Origin: a virus
DNA: 39,201 nt
Strand: one strand, 5' to 3'
UHGV virus genome: UHGV-0121072
The notes beneath the pieces are model-generated. The model searched no databases, was not told where the DNA came from, and was given only the letters and a program-made list of their open reading frames with translations. Positions 6,973 to 38,916 of the stretch are shown here, in pieces. Position numbers and translations under genes: made by a program. The number at the start of each line of letters is the position of its first letter. Position 1 is the first letter of the stretch.

Positions 6973-7013
6973 AATCATGAAGGCCACGACTTTGAGTCAT
7001 GACCTTGAGTCTA
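6973..7013 (-). promoter_or_regulatory. Conserved stem-loop, candidate RNase III processing site (upstream of gp1.1)
   Basis: Member of a repeated family TAGACTCAAGGTCAT-N-GTGGCCTT(T/C)ATGATTA (minus sense); stem AAGGUCAU/GUGGCCUU pairs only in minus-sense RNA because of G.U wobbles. Confidence 0.5.
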
Positions 7014-7336: not shown

Positions 7337-10018
7337 TTAAGCGAATGCATAGTCTGAAGACAAGACGTCTTCGATATTCAGTTTACCTTTCTTCGGAAGC
7401 TCTGGCAGCTTGTCGCGCTGGCTCTCATGAAGCTGGTATTCAAACTGCTCATAGAAGTCAAGCAGCACATCGTTGTCGCGGTAGGTCTCGACCATCGTCT
7501 CACGGACGCCACGGAACAGATACTCAGCGTCAGCCGGGATGGTACCGAAGCTATCGTGAATCACTGCGAATGACATCACGCCATACTTGCGGTGAGTGTG
7601 GACTACAGTCTTGCGTAGGTGGCTACCATCTTGTGAGTGGACGAAGTTCGGGCTAATGCCTGACTCCTGCTTGTGCTTGTCCAGCTCTTTCTTCATACCT
7701 TTATTGACTGTAGGCTGAAGGTTGAATGACCCTAAGAACATCAGGTTCAGACGAGTGGTATCCTTCTTGCGGTATTCCTGCCAGACCGGGAACCCATCAG
7801 GTGTGACCCAGTGTACCGGAAGGCAAGGCTTCAGTATTTCTCCAGTCTTCTTGTCCTTCACTTCAGCAGCCAGCAGCTTGGCAGCACCTTGAAGCCACTT
7901 CATCACGTCAACCGCAGCAACTACGGTCCCGCTCACAGCTTCCCAAATCATCTTAGCCATGAAGCGAGACGCTTGGCTTGGCTCGGTGAACATAGCTCCA
8001 GACCCTGAGTCAATCGCTGGCATCACGATGTCATCGTATACTTGGTCTGCGAATCCGTACTCTTTCGACCCGTAGGCCAGAGTCATGACTGAACGCTTAG
8101 GGACCTTACGTGACATACCGTAGGTCAGCCACTGACGGGCCAGCTCTCGTGTCCCCAGCTTGAGACGCTCGGTAATCTCACCAGTTTTCTTGTCCTCGTG
8201 AGTCACAACCTCGTTATCTGTACCGTTAACCAGCAGGACTTTAAGCTCCTCCTCAATGCGATCAGACACGATGCGGTAGATGTCTTGGACCTTACCGGAT
8301 GGCGTCAGGTTCACTGCATGTCCACCAATGTGGTCACGAAGCATCGCGCTGAAGTGCTGAATCCCAGAGCAGGACCCATCGAACGCTATCGGCAGCGAGC
8401 AGGAGTAAGACAAGCCGTGGTGCATTACGCCAGCATACTCGAAGCAGAACGCAAGGAAGCAGAACGGAGAGTCTAACTTGCCCCACCACTCAATGCTATC
8501 CATCGGTGCCTTAGCAGCAGCCATGATGTTGTCGTGGTTATCTTCCACCCACTTGATGCGCTCCTCGAAGGTGACTTTATCGACACCCGCACAGTTTGCA
8601 CCGTGGACCTTCAGCCATTTGAAACCATCAGCACCAATAGGCTTACCGACTGCCAGAGTAAGGAGACCCTTCTGCATGTCGTTACCCTGAGGGTTGAACA
8701 TCGGTACAGCGTAGACTCGACCGCGCCAGTCCATGTTGTATGGGAACCAGATGGCCTTGAACTGAGAGAACTTGTTCGCTTGGTTAACGATAAAGCTCAG
8801 TGACAATCTGCGTGACTGCCGGGCCTTCTCTCGGCGGTAGATACCGGCAGCAGCTTTCTTCCATGCCTTGAGTTCCTCTTCAGTCTCACCCACATAGTCT
8901 TCAGGCTTCAGTGGCTCCATCTGAGGGATGTCGTCAATAGGCGTGTTGTTCAACTTCTCGACCATGTTCACCACGTCCAGAACCTTCTTGTTCACTTTCC
9001 AAGGTGTATTCTGGATGATGTTGACAGCGTCATAGACTTCAGGCATGTACACGTCTTCGTAACGTGCCACCGCAGACTTAGACCCTAAGCGAATCAATGG
9101 TAACGGTCTGCGACCTTTGGCCCAGTACCCGCCGCCTACGACACCCGTCCACGGCTTAGGTGGAACGACGCAAGGCTGATAGACTGGTGCGATACCCGCA
9201 AGGCTGAATCCACGTTGTGCCATCTTCTTGACCCAGAAGTCTGACAGGTGGACCATCTCAACATCAGCCGCTGCATTGCCAGCACCATAACGCTTAAGCT
9301 CGACCAGTTGTGTGGACTGGATGACAATCTCAAGCATCTTGATGCCAACATGGACCGCCTCGGTCGGACTCCAAGTTCCCCACGCATCTTCCAGTTGACC
9401 CTGCTCCAGCATGGAGGCCTCAACCGCTTGCATGTAGGCTTTCTTGTAGGATGCCCCAGCTCGCTTGTTCAGGTTCTCAGCTATCGCCTTCTTGAAGTGC
9501 TCCTTCTCCTTGTCACGGATGCGACCGAAGCGGATTTCGTCCTCAAGTGTGCGACCTATCGCTGAGGCCATCGGTGTAATCGGTATCCCTTCAGGCTTGA
9601 CCAGCTTGGAGAGGATGACCTTCAGTATAATAACTGCAGCAGACTCGCAAGAGATACGCAGAGAGCGGTCCTTGACGGCCTTCTCTTCAGTGCTCAACAT
9701 GGTGAACGCTACGCTAGGACGAGAGGTTGACAGCTTCCCGTCTGGACCTTCATGCCACTCCCGAACGGCTTGCGCAATCTTAGGGACCAGAGTCTGCATC
9801 AAAGGCTTGGCGACCTGATTGTCTGCCAGTTCCCCGCGCTCTGTCTGGCGCTCAAGGTTCTTGATGAAACGTCGCTCGCCTTCAGTGTATGCCTCATGCT
9901 CAAGCTGAAGCTGCTTGACTGCAAGGTCTTGCCCGTAGTGGTCAGCCAGCAGGTTAAACGGCTCAATGGCGTTCGACACATCAGAGAAGTCGTGTTTGTC
10001 AATAGAGATGACGCTCAT
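7337..10018 (-). CDS. gp1: Single-subunit DNA-dependent RNA polymerase
   Basis: 893 aa; aligns along its length with T7 RNAP (FPYNMDWRGRVYA, DGSCSGIQHFSAMLRD, RSVMTLAYGSKE, HDSFGT, C-terminal ...FAFA). Confidence 0.97.
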   Translation of the reverse strand: MSVISIDKHDFSDVSNAIEPFNLLADHYGQDLAVKQLQLEHEAYTEGERRFIKNLERQTERGELADNQVAKPLMQTLVPKIAQAVREWHEGPDGKLSTSRPSVAFTMLSTEEKAVKDRSLRISCESAAVIILKVILSKLVKPEGIPITPMASAIGRTLEDEIRFGRIRDKEKEHFKKAIAENLNKRAGASYKKAYMQAVEASMLEQGQLEDAWGTWSPTEAVHVGIKMLEIVIQSTQLVELKRYGAGNAAADVEMVHLSDFWVKKMAQRGFSLAGIAPVYQPCVVPPKPWTGVVGGGYWAKGRRPLPLIRLGSKSAVARYEDVYMPEVYDAVNIIQNTPWKVNKKVLDVVNMVEKLNNTPIDDIPQMEPLKPEDYVGETEEELKAWKKAAAGIYRREKARQSRRLSLSFIVNQANKFSQFKAIWFPYNMDWRGRVYAVPMFNPQGNDMQKGLLTLAVGKPIGADGFKWLKVHGANCAGVDKVTFEERIKWVEDNHDNIMAAAKAPMDSIEWWGKLDSPFCFLAFCFEYAGVMHHGLSYSCSLPIAFDGSCSGIQHFSAMLRDHIGGHAVNLTPSGKVQDIYRIVSDRIEEELKVLLVNGTDNEVVTHEDKKTGEITERLKLGTRELARQWLTYGMSRKVPKRSVMTLAYGSKEYGFADQVYDDIVMPAIDSGSGAMFTEPSQASRFMAKMIWEAVSGTVVAAVDVMKWLQGAAKLLAAEVKDKKTGEILKPCLPVHWVTPDGFPVWQEYRKKDTTRLNLMFLGSFNLQPTVNKGMKKELDKHKQESGISPNFVHSQDGSHLRKTVVHTHRKYGVMSFAVIHDSFGTIPADAEYLFRGVRETMVETYRDNDVLLDFYEQFEYQLHESQRDKLPELPKKGKLNIEDVLSSDYAFA

Positions 10019-10087
10019 ACTTAAAGTCCTTGTTATTAGTCTTTCACTTAAAGTCTCTTTGGTCTTTCACTTGGAGTCTTAGACCTT

Positions 10088-10109
10088 GAGTCCTATAGTG
10101 ATAGTTAAG
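10088..10109 (-). promoter_or_regulatory. Phage RNAP promoter (CTTAACTATCACTATAGGAC) about 75 nt upstream of the RNAP gene
   Basis: Consensus copy with TTAAC variant also seen in two other copies; followed by two direct repeats gtctttcactt(a/g)(a/g)agtc in the leader. Confidence 0.6.
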
Positions 10110-10115
10110 TCAGAA

Positions 10116-10442
10116 TCACTTGCATATCAGTTGGTTAGCGTGAAGATGACTGAAGTCACCATGAGTCGTGTGCTTGATGGTTGACCGTTGGTCTATCGCC
10201 GTCCAGCCTGAGACCAGAAGTTTACCATCGTCAGTGATTGGTCGTCCACCATACGCCAGACACATCAGTTCGGACTTATGTCCCTCGGCCCTGAGCCTTG
10301 CTTGCAGTACCCGGTCGCGCTCCTGCTGTTGACGTTCTGAGTGACTTGAGGTCCCGTGACGGTAGCCCGTAGCCAGTGCTGAAAGCAGATTAAGGTCTGC
10401 GTCAAGTGCATGGACCAAGTTGATGCCATAAGATTTACTCAT
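10116..10442 (-). CDS. Hypothetical 108-aa early protein (occupies the slot of T7 protein kinase gp0.7)
   Basis: ORF directly upstream of the gene 1 promoter; start overlaps the stop of the preceding ORF; no kinase motifs. Confidence 0.5.
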   Translation of the reverse strand: MSKSYGINLVHALDADLNLLSALATGYRHGTSSHSERQQQERDRVLQARLRAEGHKSELMCLAYGGRPITDDGKLLVSGWTAIDQRSTIKHTTHGDFSHLHANQLICK

Positions 10443-10639
10443 TACAGTTTGCTCCCAAGAGTTGCTATATCCCAGACGTTCGCTAAGTTGCGCATGAATC
10501 GTCCGTTAGGTTGGCGCACAGTCCAGCGACCCAGACGTACATAGTTGAATTTGTAGACTTTACGCGCTTTGTTGATGTCTCTCACCAGCACGTAGACTAT
10601 AAGTCCATAGCCTATGGCTATCAATAGTGCGATACTCAT
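10442..10639 (-). CDS. Small membrane protein, 65 aa (N-terminal TM helix, basic C-terminus)
   Basis: ATG at 10639 overlaps the stop of the upstream 29-aa ORF (ATGA); hydrophobic segment IALLIAIGYGLIVYVLV. Confidence 0.45.
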   Translation of the reverse strand: MSIALLIAIGYGLIVYVLVRDINKARKVYKFNYVRLGRWTVRQPNGRFMRNLANVWDIATLGSKL

Positions 10640-10725
10640 AGTGATTTCCGTTTAATACAATCGTATATACCATAACCCATCATCCAGATAACTGGCGCTA
10701 GGCATACCCAGTAACCGATGTTCAT
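10636..10725 (-). CDS. Candidate 29-aa hydrophobic peptide
   Basis: ATG at 10725 with AGGAG SD 6 nt upstream; MNIGYWVCLAPVIWMMGYGIYDCIKRKSL; coupled to the next ORF. Confidence 0.25.
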   Translation of the reverse strand: MNIGYWVCLAPVIWMMGYGIYDCIKRKSL

Positions 10726-10751
10726 AGTTAACTCCTATCAATGTAAGTGAT

Positions 10752-10792
10752 AATCTTTGAGGCCACCTATCAGTCAGATGACCTCTCGTCTA
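10752..10792 (-). promoter_or_regulatory. Conserved stem-loop, candidate RNase III site (variant)
   Basis: aatctttgaggccac...atgacct... variant of the stem-loop family. Confidence 0.4.
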
Positions 10793-10798
10793 TCACTC

Positions 10799-11146
10799 CT
10801 ACACTTCCACCTCGATGGTTGTCATCTTGGTCACAGTAAGACCACCAGCAAGCTCAACCGCATAGCGTATCGCCTCCTCTTTGGACTTGAAGTCCTTTCC
10901 CGCAAGGTGGTATATGTCCCCTGTTATTACCTTAGATGGCCTGCGACTTACCGCAATAGCGTTTTCCATGGTAAGCTCACCACGGCTATACTGAGTAAAC
11001 CAGCGCTTCACCGAACTCGTCCCCACCCCGAACTTTTTGGCGGTTTCCGTCACCCTATCTATAACTCCCTCAGGCAGGGAGGTGTAGTAGTTAACAACGT
11101 TGAGTTTAAATGCTACCGAGAATACATTGCGAGTTTTAGCAGTCAT
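10799..11146 (-). CDS. Early protein with IS3/IS911 OrfA-type helix-turn-helix (HTH_Tnp_1-like), 115 aa
   Basis: N-terminus VFSVAFKLNVVNYYTSLPEGVIDRVTETAKKFGVGTSSVKRWFTQYSRG follows the IS3-family OrfA HTH pattern; no transposase catalytic domain follows. Confidence 0.55.
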   Translation of the reverse strand: MTAKTRNVFSVAFKLNVVNYYTSLPEGVIDRVTETAKKFGVGTSSVKRWFTQYSRGELTMENAIAVSRRPSKVITGDIYHLAGKDFKSKEEAIRYAVELAGGLTVTKMTTIEVEV

Positions 11147-11176
11147 TATTCTTTCCTTCTGTGGTTGTCAAGTGGT

Positions 11177-11210
11177 AATCACTCAGGCCACCATGTAGAT
11201 GACCTGTAGT
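11177..11210 (-). promoter_or_regulatory. Conserved stem-loop, candidate RNase III site (variant)
   Basis: aatcactcaggccacc atgtag atgacct variant of the family. Confidence 0.4.
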
Positions 11211-11217
11211 TTAACAC

Positions 11218-11343
11218 TCAGTACCCACCTGTCAGCGTTATGGTCAGACTTTGGTGATTAGCTACGTAGCAAGCACCACGCTTCATCATCTCGTAGCACC
11301 CATTGTAGAACGCCTGTTCACTGCTATAAGTTATCTGGTACAT
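11218..11343 (-). CDS. Candidate 41-aa early protein
   Basis: ATG at 11343 with GAGGA SD, TGA at 11220..11218; MYQITYSSEQAFYNGCYEMMKRGACYVANHQSLTITLTGGY. Confidence 0.3.
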   Translation of the reverse strand: MYQITYSSEQAFYNGCYEMMKRGACYVANHQSLTITLTGGY

Positions 11344-11500
11344 AGTTGCTTGTCCTCAGCGCGTAAGCTGTCGTATAGACGCTTGCGGCCCTCGTAGACC
11401 TCTTTCAGGTGACGCATAGTCGCATCGTGGTTTAACTGCCCGGTCTTGACCATAAGCCTGGCGTTGGTGACGTGGTGCTGGCAGAGACCATAAGTTAACA

Positions 11501-11845
11501 TCACTCGCAGTCCTCCTCGTCGCTCTCTTCAGCCTCAAACCAGACCACATCCGAGCTATCGAGCACGTCATTATATAGCGCCTCATAGATGCGAGCTTGC
11601 AATATACGCGTTACGTCCTTGGTCTCAGGCATCAGCCCAGAGTCTTCGAACTCGTGGTCTATACCATCAGCAGCCATCACCGTGAAGATCTCGTGGTAAT
11701 AGTGCGGAACCTGACTGTCTACGACTTCATGCAGCGCATCATGGTAGTCATCGCCTTCAGCTATTTCGTCGTACTGAATACGCTCGTTAAAGGCCTCAAC
11801 GGTTGCAGTCAGCAGCTCATAGTATGCGTTAGCGTTACGTTCCAT
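11501..11845 (-). CDS. ocr: Ocr (overcome classical restriction) DNA-mimic anti-restriction protein
   Basis: 114 aa; VPHYYHEIFTVMAADGIDHEFEDSGLMPETKDVTRILQARIYE nearly identical to T7 gp0.3; acidic C-terminus. Confidence 0.9.
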   Translation of the reverse strand: MERNANAYYELLTATVEAFNERIQYDEIAEGDDYHDALHEVVDSQVPHYYHEIFTVMAADGIDHEFEDSGLMPETKDVTRILQARIYEALYNDVLDSSDVVWFEAEESDEEDCE

Positions 11846-11876
11846 AGTTATATCCTCTCAGTTGTTAGTGACCATC

Positions 11877-11913
11877 AGTCAGGGCCTTCAGATGTAGACT
11901 CAAAGACCCTGTA
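11877..11913 (-). promoter_or_regulatory. Stem-loop upstream of ocr, candidate RNase III site
   Basis: Minus-sense CAGGGUCUU...AAGGCCCUG 9-bp stem; T7 has an RNase III site before gene 0.3. Confidence 0.4.
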
Positions 11914-12027
11914 GTTAGTCGCTATCGGCGCACATTAAGAGTTTATCCAGATTGTTAAAGAGCATTCCCTTCAGTCAGATGACTTCAGGTAGACCATTTC
12001 AGTGTTGGTCGTCACCGTTGTTTCGAT

Positions 12028-12064
12028 GTGGTACAGCTTACATCTTATCGTTACTGCTTGTCAA
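12028..12064 (-). promoter_or_regulatory. Host sigma70-type early promoter (T7 A2/A3-like)
   Basis: TTGACA, 18 bp, TAAGCT, then GTACCACATCGAAAC, closely resembling the T7 A3 region. Confidence 0.45.
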
Positions 12065-12169
12065 CTACTTTCTGTCATCTGCCTGTTGTTCGTATGACTT
12101 ATCAGGTTGTCTACTTAACCGGGATGACCCGGCGTCTTCACTATCCGGTTGTTGCCGTGTCGTGTTGAC

Positions 12170-12205
12170 GGAAGCTATTAAGCCATAGTCTAGACCTATA
12201 GTCAA
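12170..12205 (-). promoter_or_regulatory. Host sigma70-type early promoter (T7 A1-like)
   Basis: AT-rich upstream tract, TTGACT, 17 bp, CTTAAT; downstream ...CCGGTTAAGTAGACAACCTGATAAGTC resembles the T7 A1 leader. Confidence 0.4.
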
Positions 12206-12950
12206 TAGGAAATCTTAAATAATATTGATTAAGCTATCGTCGGCCCCATGGCGTAAGAGGATAGTCTTTGACTAACATGTATTAGACCTTAAGTCTATAG
12301 CTTTGTGTCTATTAGACTGTAGGTCTTTGACTGTAGGTAATGGCTTTACCGATGGTCGGTGACTGTAGGTTGTAGGACTGTAGGTTGTTGAGACCTATGG
12401 TTATACAGATAGGGACTCAGAGACAGACCAATAGTCCCTACCTATCGTCCTGACCTCCAGCCATAGCCTCTACCTATCGTTGACCAATAGTCCCACCTAT
12501 CGTTGACCAATAGTCCCACCTATCGTTGACCAATAGTCCCACCATCTGTCCAACCCTTATGATAGACTGGAGGTAGGGGCCACCCTTTGTCTGGACTGAA
12601 AGAGGGCCTATGGGGAGACTTGAGGTTCTTGAACTGTGAGATGTGGTCTCAAACTTTTGGTATAAAACTCATCGAAGACTGTAGGTGGCAGCTACTGTAG
12701 GTCAAGGACCGTAGGTCAGGCGACACTAGGATAGACCAATAAGTAGGATGACCCTAAGTGAGATTCTATTAAGGTGTTACCTAAAGTCCTTGACTACAGT
12801 ATCTAAGGTCAGTAGAGTAGCGTCAGCTATGAACTGACCTTAGGTCTTCAATGCGCGTATTCCCACTCCGTCTGATAATCTTCATCAGAGAACGACCCAT
12901 AAGACTCCTCGTCCATCCCTACCTCCTTTCGTTGATTGTTACCATGATTG
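12206..12950. repeat. Non-coding genome-terminus region with dispersed decamer repeats (plus-strand gactgtaggt and variants, at least 7 copies)
   Basis: No credible ORF; repeated decamers at 12315, 12329, 12361, 12377, 12677, 12693, 12707; position (between gene 19.5-like ORF and early promoters) equals the T7 terminal repeat/concatemer junction. Confidence 0.6.
12425..12551. repeat. Tandem repeat array, 23-bp unit acctatcgttgaccaatagtccc: 3 perfect copies (12472..12540) plus degenerate flanking copies
   Basis: Seen directly; contiguous identical units without spacers. Confidence 0.85.
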
Positions 12951-12952
12951 CG

Positions 12953-13111
12953 TTAATTACACTGAGACACCAGAGAACATACGAGAGTCTCGACCCACCC
13001 GACCCACTGACTTCCAGCAGTAACGCCAGCAGCAAGTAGAACAGCAGTAAGAAACCTATATGTAGCTCGATTGGTCGCCAGAGCTTTAAGTACAGCTTTG
13101 GTCTTTGCCAT
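12953..13111 (-). CDS. Candidate 52-aa membrane protein (gene 19.5 position)
   Basis: ATG at 13111 with AGGAGG SD; hydrophobic FLTAVLLAAGVTAGSQWVGWV; downstream of the terminal promoter as in T7. Confidence 0.3.
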   Translation of the reverse strand: MAKTKAVLKALATNRATYRFLTAVLLAAGVTAGSQWVGWVETLVCSLVSQCN

Positions 13112-13291
13112 ATGCTACATACCTCCTGTATCTATGGTCTGTGACTATCTGTATTGGAGGGATTATGATTAATATCACCCTCCTTCCATCGGTGCAAGCC
13201 TTAGGTAAGAACTCGGAGTCTGCCTCCTAAGGTCTTGCATAAAGTCTGCATATGTATATTCACTACAGTAATACTATAAGTAACCGGGGGT

Positions 13292-13313
13292 CTTCCCTAT
13301 AGTGATAGTTAAG
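13292..13313 (-). promoter_or_regulatory. Phage RNAP promoter (CTTAACTATCACTATAGGGA) after the terminase gene (phiOR-like)
   Basis: Consensus copy near the genome right end. Confidence 0.7.
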
Positions 13314-13408
13314 TCCAAACTCCTTGTAAAACAGTAGGTTAGACTGGTAGTAACTATAGGTTACTAACCGCGTATTAATGCAGCTTTCACCAATAGTTAT
13401 TCATTCAT

Positions 13409-15172
13409 CTAGTGGAACGTAACGTAGGACCCTAGTCCCAGCTCGTCGTCCGTATCGTGAGTTACCCGGACCCCATTGTCCCAGAACTCAGTGTGGATGG
13501 ACTCGAAGCCTTTCCGTGGGTTCTCCATCTGTTCCTCCAGCCACTCCTCAGTGACTTCACGTTCGCCTTTGTTGGCATCCTTAGCCATCGACTCAACGAA
13601 GAACTGTACACCGATAGCCAGCGCATCAAGTCGGTCATCGTGTGCCAAGGCTCCACGTTCACGAGAGATACGGGTCATCTGGTAGAAGAGAGAGTAGATA
13701 GGGTTACGAACACCATCCTTGTCAGAGGCTGTCTGGTAGTCTTGGACGATAGCAGCAGCGTTAACGATAAGTCGGTGAGACCCCATGATAGGCTCCAGAA
13801 CGTCACAGATGCGGAGTTCTTTCTGACCCTTACTCTTCACTTCAGTTACAGCAGCAGGATGGATACGGGCCGCTACAGGCTTGAATAGCTCAAGGTACAT
13901 ACCATCACCGAAGTTACCCTCAATGACGTATTCGTTGACCTTCCACTTATGACCAATCTTAGCCAGAGCTTCCAGAGTAGAGTCTTCGTATCCACCACGC
14001 ATACCACCAACCTCCATAGCGAAGATGTAGCCGTTGAGCTGGTACAATACCGCATAACCAGTTTCATCCTTACCACGACCACTAGGGTCAATGACCAGAA
14101 TCTTCTGGGTGTATGAGCTGAACGCAGAACCTACAGTCTGATACGTGTGGTACGAGTCACCAATGAGTCCAACGTTAGGAACGTCCTCACGCTTGTTCTG
14201 ATGGTTCGGCAACCATTGGTAGACCATTGGGCTAGACGCTGGGTCTAAGTCCGCTACGATAAGGTCACGGAGCTTCAGAGGGTATTTCTCGGCATCACTC
14301 AGGTTCGGGTTAAGCATGAACTGTAGAGCGAAGCCAGCTTTACCGTAGGACAGCTCACGTTCCTTCAGGTCAGTATCGTCGAATCGAACTTCATCGGTCG
14401 GACGCCAGTAGAAGGCCTCAGGGTCCTCTTCAAGCTCTGCCTGAAGCATAGGAGCCAGACGGTCTCCGTAAGACTGCCAGTCCTTCCTGTCGCGTGGATA
14501 ACGAGCAGGCCAGATAGTAGTGGTGTATCCACGGCCTTCTAGCTCACGATACAAGGTCATCTCGTTCTGAGGAGTACCCAGATAGATGATTGTACCTCCC
14601 GGCTTCAGGATAGCGTCGAACTCTTTCACAAGCTCTGACAGGCGGTCTCTTGCAGCCTGAGTCGCTGAGTTGTTCGGAACCTCAACGTCATCGGCAATCA
14701 GGATGTCAGCACGACTACCAGTCAACTGACCAGTGATACCAACTGACTTAACAGAAGGTGAGTGGTCAGGCTTGGCTGGCCCAACGTCGAAGCTAATAAC
14801 CGCATCTCGCTGTCCCTGCTTAGGTTTGAGTTCCTGAAGCTGAGGCATGAGGTCGATGATTCGCTTGATGAATATGGAGTTAGCATCAGCTCGTTCCTTT
14901 GAGGCAGACACAATCATGAACTTCAAGTCTGGGTTGTTCCATAGTTTCCAGACCACGAATGCACACGTAATGAAGGACTTCCCGATACCACGGAACGCCT
15001 GTAAGATGAAACGCCTGTTGTCCCCAGCCGATAGTTTCTTCGCCATGTCAATCTGACAGCGAGTCGGGACTGGGAGTGACAGAGCTTTCCATAGAACAAA
15101 CAGGAAGAACACGAAGTCTGCCTTCATACGGGCAGTCATTAGCGCCTGACGCGCCACTAAGTCTTTACTCAA
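13409..15172 (-). CDS. gp19: Terminase large subunit (TTG start)
   Basis: 587 aa; [73 protein letters not shown] match T7 gp19. Start codon at 15172..15170 is TTG with AAGGAGG SD 7 nt upstream. Confidence 0.93.
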
Positions 15173-15825: not shown

Positions 15826-15867
15826 AATCATAAAGGCCACCTACTACATGTAGATGACCTTGAGTCT
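15826..15867 (-). promoter_or_regulatory. Conserved stem-loop, candidate RNase III site (between gp18 and gp18.5)
   Basis: aatcataaaggccac ctactacatgtag atgaccttgagtcta; T7 has an RNase III site at this junction. Confidence 0.5.
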
Positions 15868-38877: not shown

Positions 38878-38916
38878 AATCATAAAGGCCACTCGCTGTG
38901 AATGACCTTGAGTCTA
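38878..38916 (-). promoter_or_regulatory. Conserved stem-loop, candidate RNase III site (upstream of gene 5)
   Basis: aatcataaaggccac tcgctgtga atgaccttgagtcta, third near-identical copy of the family. Confidence 0.5.

Follow-up and report, generated by a model that had tools for sequence, protein, structure and literature searches.

The 115-residue open reading frame (ORF) of the virus genome UHGV-0121072 is probably an optional early-gene unit lying between two hairpins of the RNase III-processed type, with an oligomeric, DNA-binding product that serves as an early regulator or in host takeover. As judged from the sequence and from a structural model, the product is not a transposase, having a basic helix–turn–helix (HTH) domain followed by a linker with the motif NAIAVS and then by a small ββα module. 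The hairpins are an element of an already known kind, and the protein is an uncharacterized variant of the OrfA-like HTH proteins that has been taken up by lytic phages.

The window, by which we mean the whole stretch of 39,201 nucleotides analysed, is the genome, in circularly permuted form, of a T7 relative of Kayfunavirus-like type (K1F group), with its genes on the minus strand. The RNA polymerase (RNAP) gene is found at 7337–10018 (−) and the large terminase gene, which adjoins the left end of the genome, at 13409–15172 (−). We note that the arrangement is permuted or concatemer-style, as the right-end terminase gene abuts left-end repeats and early promoters at 12200–13300. The noncoding left end (12300–12720) is rich in short repeats, with three exact, overlapping copies of a 26-nt sequence at 23-nt spacing (12472–12543), and this region also holds at least five copies of GACTGTAGGT (12315–12388 and beyond). 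A 47-nt repeat resembling a phage-RNAP promoter (reverse complement GACTTAACTATCACTATAGG) is present in two copies of 81% identity, one immediately upstream of the RNAP gene (10092–10138, −) and the second, close to the left-end region, immediately downstream of the terminase gene (13296–13342, −).

The neighbours of the 115-aa ORF are small ORFs. Upstream of it are an ocr homolog at 11501–11845 (−; phrog_2568, E = 1e-53), a member of the gp0.4 family and a 41-aa ORF. The gp0.4-family member is the 57-aa ORF at 11331–11504 (−), directly after ocr (phrog_5058, E = 5e-27); T7 gp0.4 is an inhibitor of FtsZ. PF26807, labelled Phage_T7_GP04 on another contig, occurs in the fusion protein P0029, the N-terminus of which is homologous to this 57-aa ORF. 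The 2.2 kb surrounding the 115-aa ORF has matches in 270 phage records, mostly at 80–95% identity, and the protein itself was detected by tblastn in 26 phage records, none of which is T7. These counts are consistent with the statement of the earlier note that T7 has nothing like this gene, and they bear out its view of the gene as an accessory one, inserted in the early region devoted to host takeover.

The ORF occupies 10799..11146 (−) including the stop codon, exactly as first described, and starts with ATG. It is preceded by a 23-nt leader (11147..11169, −) in which a Shine–Dalgarno sequence, AAGGA, is located at 11158–11154, 7 nt before the ATG; the leader is conserved in phage ASO2B. The ratio dN/dS is below 1 in both halves of the ORF across diverged homologs, which indicates that it is a real coding sequence. 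An antisense ORF of 150 aa at 10757..11209 (+) was taken to be a spurious shadow of the minus-strand gene.

Each side of the ORF is occupied by a hairpin on the sense strand between minus-strand ORFs. The upstream hairpin (type A) extends over 11170–11219 (−) with its upper stem at 11185–11205, overlapping with its first bases the stop codon of the 41-aa ORF before it. Its downstream counterpart (type B) extends over 10745–10798 (−) with its upper stem at 10760–10784. In the fold of both, an internal loop separates a lower from an upper stem, so that the two flanking stem-loops that had been noticed earlier do exist, although the full two-helix elements are slightly wider than was originally given. 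Compared with dinucleotide-preserving shuffles, the folding has z = −2.6 for the upstream and z = −4.4 for the downstream hairpin. The two are direct repeats of each other (families D7 and D13). A repeat search found no inverted-repeat pair bracketing the ORF, and in the region of 10750..11220, where inverted repeats or target duplications had been thought worth seeking, only the direct repeats D7 and D13 bracket it; no target-site duplication is visible around the ORF, the insertion junction being the GAGTG of the hairpins. An Rfam search of the early region returned no family at E ≤ 1.

Further members of the same hairpin family are present on the sense strand of the window at 6981–7005 (−), downstream of the RNAP gene in a position like that of T7 R1.1, and at 15834–15860 (−) and 38886–38908 (−), with a location near the late genes and a position possibly analogous to R18.5 among these. 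The copy at 15834 has AGGTCATCTACATG in common with the hairpin accompanying the HTH gene, and a variant copy is found at 11881–11910 (−), just before ocr, like R0.3. The stem-loops thus do not belong to an IS-like structure or to one specific to the gene, as had been proposed, but are direct repeats with additional copies elsewhere in the window and with homology to the RNase III sites of T7.

The homology was established by folding the T7 early intergenic gaps at R0.3, R0.5, R1, R1.1 and R1.3, the positions of which we take to be those given by Dunn & Studier in 1983; the T7 GenBank and RefSeq feature tables, as shown, do not list RNase III sites. The gaps gave the same type of hairpin with near-identical sequence. 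The upper stem of the upstream hairpin, CAGGUCAUCU..GGUGGCCUGA, is nearly identical to that of T7 R1 (compare CAGGUCAUCUacauGGUGGCCUGA in the window with CAGGUCAUCUgcggGUGGCCUGA in R1), and the 3′ side of the downstream hairpin, GGCCUCAAAGAUUAUCACUU, resembles T7 R0.5, GGCCUUUAUGAUUAUCACUU; the likeness to R1 and R0.5 covers the upper stems and the 3′ flanks. When five window copies, four T7 sites and the copies from phages Peacock and K1F were aligned, an invariant core AGG.C...GTGGCCT was found across all 11 sequences, including the T7 sites at the R0.5, R1, R1.1 and R1.3 positions. In this alignment the two-helix structure pairs 89.8% of cells, compared with 25–46% when the 3′ partners are slid by 1–3 columns, and 11 of the 21 pairs show compensatory change, with both sides altered; none of 500 shuffles reaches the observed pairing values. 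On this comparative evidence we predict that the flanking hairpins are neither IS ends nor terminators but RNase III processing sites of the generic T7 type, by which the early transcript is punctuated. In T7, RNase III cuts early RNA at five sites, giving mono- and dicistronic mRNAs (PMC4858673), and in both T3 and T7 the R0.3 site is located between promoter A3 and gene 0.3 (PMC3276506).

Alignment of the window and ASO2B, in which the gene is present, with Peacock and K1F, in which it is absent, indicates a single clean presence/absence difference of 421 nt (10799–11219), while the surrounding DNA of phages with and without the gene is about 90% identical. This unit comprises the upstream hairpin, the Shine–Dalgarno leader and the ORF. 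Its start is the GAGTG at the opening of the upstream hairpin, where it overlaps the stop codon of the preceding ORF, and it ends at the stop codon of the 115-aa ORF, right before the GAGTG of the next hairpin. The type A hairpin is missing from Peacock and K1F together with the ORF. The type B hairpin is resident with or without the gene, being found in Peacock, K1F, IMEP24, pO2 and ASO2B. Each gene variant has its own 5′ hairpin, and the diverged version of the gene in pO2 carries a different one. The alignments thus indicate that the exchangeable unit is an RNase III site plus a gene, and that its gain or loss takes place at the GAGTG with which each predicted site opens. Penshu1 is another phage that has the gene. 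Outside Kayfunavirus, in VLCpiA3d, SRT7, Dev2 and JJY1, the gene is not bracketed by hairpins, which suggests that bracketing is a property of the local punctuation of the transcript and not of the gene. We also note in Peacock (L003, sense 1021–1393) a second unit built in this way from a hairpin and a gene: ahead of ocr, CPT_Peacock_004 is bounded by two R0.3-type hairpins that are nearly identical, where K1F, ASO2B and IMEP24 have a single hairpin.

The N-terminal half of the protein (residues 6–55; 10982..11131, −) is a basic, three-helix HTH domain of the transposase type, of the kind seen in IS3 OrfA, Brinker and CENP-B, and this assignment is firm at the level of the family. For the window protein by itself every Pfam match falls below the gathering threshold, with 15.4 bits versus 24.1 for HTH_Tnp_1 and 22.2 versus 23.4 for the best match, BrkDBD (PF09607). 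The homolog P0026 passes the HTH_Tnp_1 threshold with 27.6 bits, and 15 of 24 diverse family members match this model at E ≤ 0.01 (best 3.5e-10). The original description of an IS3/IS911 OrfA-type HTH therefore stands for the family and is weak for the window copy taken singly. Among solved structures the family profile matches the IS3-type, OrfA-like protein Cgl2762 (PDB entry 2jn6; E = 1.9e-4) and Brinker (E = 1.4e-3). Residues 10–55 form three helices in the AlphaFold model, with a pLDDT of about 90. The domain has a net charge of +5 in the window protein and of +3 to +5 in most members despite a column identity of about 40%, and Arg6, Lys14, Trp49 and Gln52 are conserved.

Matches to LRR and repebody entries in the PDB were rejected as an artefact, since the score is summed over repeats from a 16-residue chance match (NYYTSLPEGVIDRVTE) and no single stretch is significant. 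The sequence in question, within ORF residues 15–35 (about 11042–11104, −), mimics the LRR consensus NQLTSLPxGVFxxLT. It may also lie behind the multi-stretch matches to long proteins in the exhaustive search described below, and possibly behind the 'F-box domain' label in phage P1723.

The linker (residues 56–70; 10937..10981, −) carries the motif G.L.L.NAIAVS(R/H)KP, which is the signature of a wider superfamily. It has the highest mean column identity of any segment, 0.68, and is present even in the weakest significant matches of the exhaustive search. The C-terminal module (residues 71–115; 10802..10936, −) is modelled as a β-hairpin, a helix and a low-confidence terminal strand; in the AlphaFold2 model the hairpin (79–86) and helix (89–99) have a pLDDT of about 77 and the last 13 residues fall below 60. 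There are 32 invariant columns among 22 homologs, almost all of them after residue 56. The C-terminal half has dN/dS values of 0.10–0.21 at dS values from 0.4 to above 2, and its conservation is consequently the result of purifying selection and not merely of recently shared DNA; in the HTH half dN is about 0.8. Between the window and ASO2B, dS is 0.08 in the N-terminal half and 0.38 in the C-terminal half, a difference that points to recombination inside the gene. Scanned alone, the C-terminal module has no Pfam, PHROG or NCBIfam match, and no structural match was found among solved structures; DUF2188 is a possible relative, but at E = 0.18 and 12.4 bits against a threshold of 22 it is a lead only. 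Within the protein the C-terminal half is thus the part that is both most conserved and most unusual, a point that the earlier note missed.

HTH-less forms of the module are also found. In P0029 it is fused to an N-terminus of the gp0.4 family and in P0008 to a homolog of the 41-aa ORF upstream of the gene in the window, while P0032 is a 56-aa HTH-less form. In the gp0.2 of Dev2 (L009, 759–1076) an N-terminal fragment of SAM lyase is fused in frame to the module, and the RefSeq name 'SAM-dependent methyltransferase' for this protein looks wrong. In the 'ocr' of IMEP24 (L010, 517–1077) about the first 128 residues of a K1F-type ocr are fused in frame to it. P0008, P0028 and P0029 are clusters of one sequence each, two sequences make up P0032 and the IMEP24 fusion is known from one phage record, so that the HTH-less fusions may be recent deletions.

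The family is small. An exhaustive profile search of 1.84 billion representatives returned only 70 proteins at E ≤ 0.001, 12 of them at E ≤ 1e-10, and a second large homology search with a diverse profile gave no characterized or informatively named member and no new source name. All of the small members inspected have G.L.L.NAIAVS(R/H)KP directly after the HTH and then differ in their C-termini, which may be the ββα module, a coiled coil (P0040, P0063, P0072 and P0082) or a short β-rich tail; the coiled coil is found only in distant members, and in the window protein the model has neither a leucine zipper nor a coiled coil after the HTH but a β-hairpin and a helix. Two HTH units are present in P0036, P0038, P0074 and P0083. 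Every context that could be recovered is a phage region of early type, near ocr, SAM lyase, gp0.4, the T7-type kinase or the RNAP gene, or else in a run of small co-directional ORFs, and no DDE transposase gene was seen in any relative's context examined. A whole-chain Foldseek search of the PDB gave nothing significant, and a search of a viral structure library returned homologs only. The label 'SiR5 protein' could not be traced in PDB sequence searches or in the literature. PADLOC-DB holds no match for the window protein, although this is a weak test as the database covers defence systems rather than anti-defence genes. The motifs of the protein are absent from the supplements of an accessory-gene screen (bioRxiv 10.1101/2023.04.06.535777), and the SFPH2 genome paper does not discuss the gene.

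Two other explanations of the locus were considered, in each of which the hairpins would have a different meaning. In one, the ORF is a remnant or a domesticated fragment of an IS3-family insertion sequence and the flanking repeats are relics of IS ends. The HTH_Tnp_1-type HTH of the family would fit this, as would weak matches to the IS3 and IS66 TnpA NCBIfam models and the fact that UniProt gives the homologs in SFPH2 and Phoria the name 'Transposase'. However, that name reflects the HTH only, all of the NCBIfam scores are far below their cut-offs, and the ORF list of the window contains no frameshift partner or DDE ORF following the gene, as had been observed at the outset. The repeats are direct and not inverted, and they are homologous to the T7 sites. 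The homolog search that had been proposed as a check located homologs in phages and none among 72,556 plasmids or 5,426 complete E. coli genomes, and the nearest relatives all carry the NAIAVS linker and sit in phage contexts. The suggestion of a domesticated IS fragment thus lacks support as a recent event, the gene belonging instead to a phage-borne superfamily with a linker of its own; this explanation is largely refuted and, in our estimation, extremely improbable. In the other, the hairpins are rho-independent terminators that insulate the gene, a moron with a promoter of its own. In the ASO2B record both hairpins are entered as terminators and a σ70-like promoter is placed between the upstream hairpin and the ORF (L001, locus 2496–2522), and a perfect TTGACA lies at 11171–11166 (−) between that hairpin and the start codon. 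Against this, a U-tract (T-run) is absent after either hairpin, a terminator scan of 9900–13400 found zero terminator-like sites, and promoter-like matches are no more frequent than in shuffles (7 found compared with 5.4 expected). The ASO2B promoter feature extends only into the first bases of the ORF, and if transcription started 5–9 nt beyond its −10 element, it would do so inside the first codons; the TTGACA is probably not the promoter of the gene, since transcription from it would begin inside the coding sequence. The hairpins moreover match known processing sites in core, covariation and likeness to T7. We consider this explanation very unlikely. The gene is not the classical moron that had been suggested, as it has neither a terminator nor a convincing promoter of its own and the unit is bounded by processing sites.

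In the reading that we prefer, host RNA polymerase would, as in T7, transcribe the early region as one long precursor, which host RNase III would cut at the hairpins between genes. Given that two hairpins bracket the ORF, the gene would leave the precursor as a short mRNA of its own, with the 5′ end in the upstream site and the 3′ end formed by the downstream hairpin. The protein would bind DNA through the HTH and, to judge from its architecture, oligomerize through the C-terminal module, and would act early during infection, either regulating transcription or serving in host takeover. The parallel with IS3 OrfA and the coiled coil that distant members have in the same position suggest the oligomeric DNA-binding role, and from its position among those for ocr, gp0.4 and the kinase the gene may reasonably be considered for a role in host takeover or regulation. 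The analysis yielded neither a DNA target nor an operator nor any cis element specific to the gene. Also weighing against this reading, one does not usually see a dimerization module so much more conserved than the domain that binds DNA, the C-terminal module persists in HTH-less fusions, which fits an effector better, and the model of this module is of moderate confidence only.

In the main alternative, the active effector would be the C-terminal module itself, which would bind a conserved protein of the host in host takeover or anti-defence, the fast-evolving HTH being an accessory part for targeting or regulation. The contrast between the low dN/dS of the module and the high dN of the HTH would be expected here, and in Dev2, IMEP24, P0029, P0008 and P0032 the module has stayed in frame although the HTH is lost. 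Both of the partial copies found by frame-agnostic tblastn are in-frame fusions. The surroundings of ocr, gp0.4 and kinase genes would suit an effector, and the terminal strand has no confident fold in the monomer model, as would be expected if it folds on a partner. However, the fusions are rare and may be recent neutral deletions, protein searches detect in-frame survivors only, no anti-defence or defence-related profile and no structural analogue matches the module, and the coiled coil of distant relatives in the same position suggests a role in oligomerization. We think an effector of this kind possible but on balance unlikely. A bolder combined proposal is that the module is a portable, previously undescribed effector directed against an Enterobacterales-wide factor and that the RNase III hairpins are recombination joints for trading early genes; we regard this combination as distinctly doubtful. 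If it were true, T7-like phages would swap early host-takeover genes as units of hairpin plus gene, and would keep the C-terminal module after losing the HTH by fusing it to the N-termini of ocr, SAM lyase or gp0.4.

Returning to the preferred reading of an early regulator or host-takeover factor in an optional unit, no result on this gene or its hairpins overturns current understanding. The comparison provides a concrete picture of early-region variation in T7-like phages, in which whole units of processing site and gene appear to come and go at the edge of a hairpin. It also corrects annotation, since the 'terminators' of ASO2B are better described as putative RNase III sites and the UniProt 'Transposase' of SFPH2 and Phoria is not a transposase, and it draws attention to a small family, specific to phages, in which an OrfA-like HTH and a NAIAVS linker are joined to a C-terminal module that can be swapped.

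Several known systems offer comparisons. OrfA of the IS3 family consists of an HTH and a leucine zipper. The 115-aa protein shares with IS911 OrfA, IS629 OrfA (2rn7) and Cgl2762 an N-terminal arm and three-helix HTH with the pattern FK...W, and a small overall size in which the HTH precedes a presumed oligomerization part. It differs in lacking an OrfB/DDE partner, a frameshift site and IS ends, in having the NAIAVS linker and ββα module in place of the leucine zipper, and in belonging to a family encoded by lytic phages only. The N-terminal DNA-binding domains of Brinker and CENP-B are eukaryotic, have no counterpart to the C-terminal module and are matched in Pfam with a sub-threshold score. 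T7 Gp5.7 (PMC5569994) and the Aca repressors (PMC9410906) offer an analogy for how the protein may work, a likeness of logic resting on neither sequence nor fold, and Gp5.7 is the product of a middle gene whereas the gene in the window is early. The hairpins resemble the early T7 sites R0.3, R0.5, R1, R1.1 and R1.3 in their sense-strand, intergenic place in the early operon, in their two helices with an internal loop between them, and in the core AGGUC...GUGGCCU with the 3′ flank GAUUA. They differ from the T7 sites in being predicted from sequence, in their loop and inner-stem sequences, and in that an extra site in the window goes with an extra gene.
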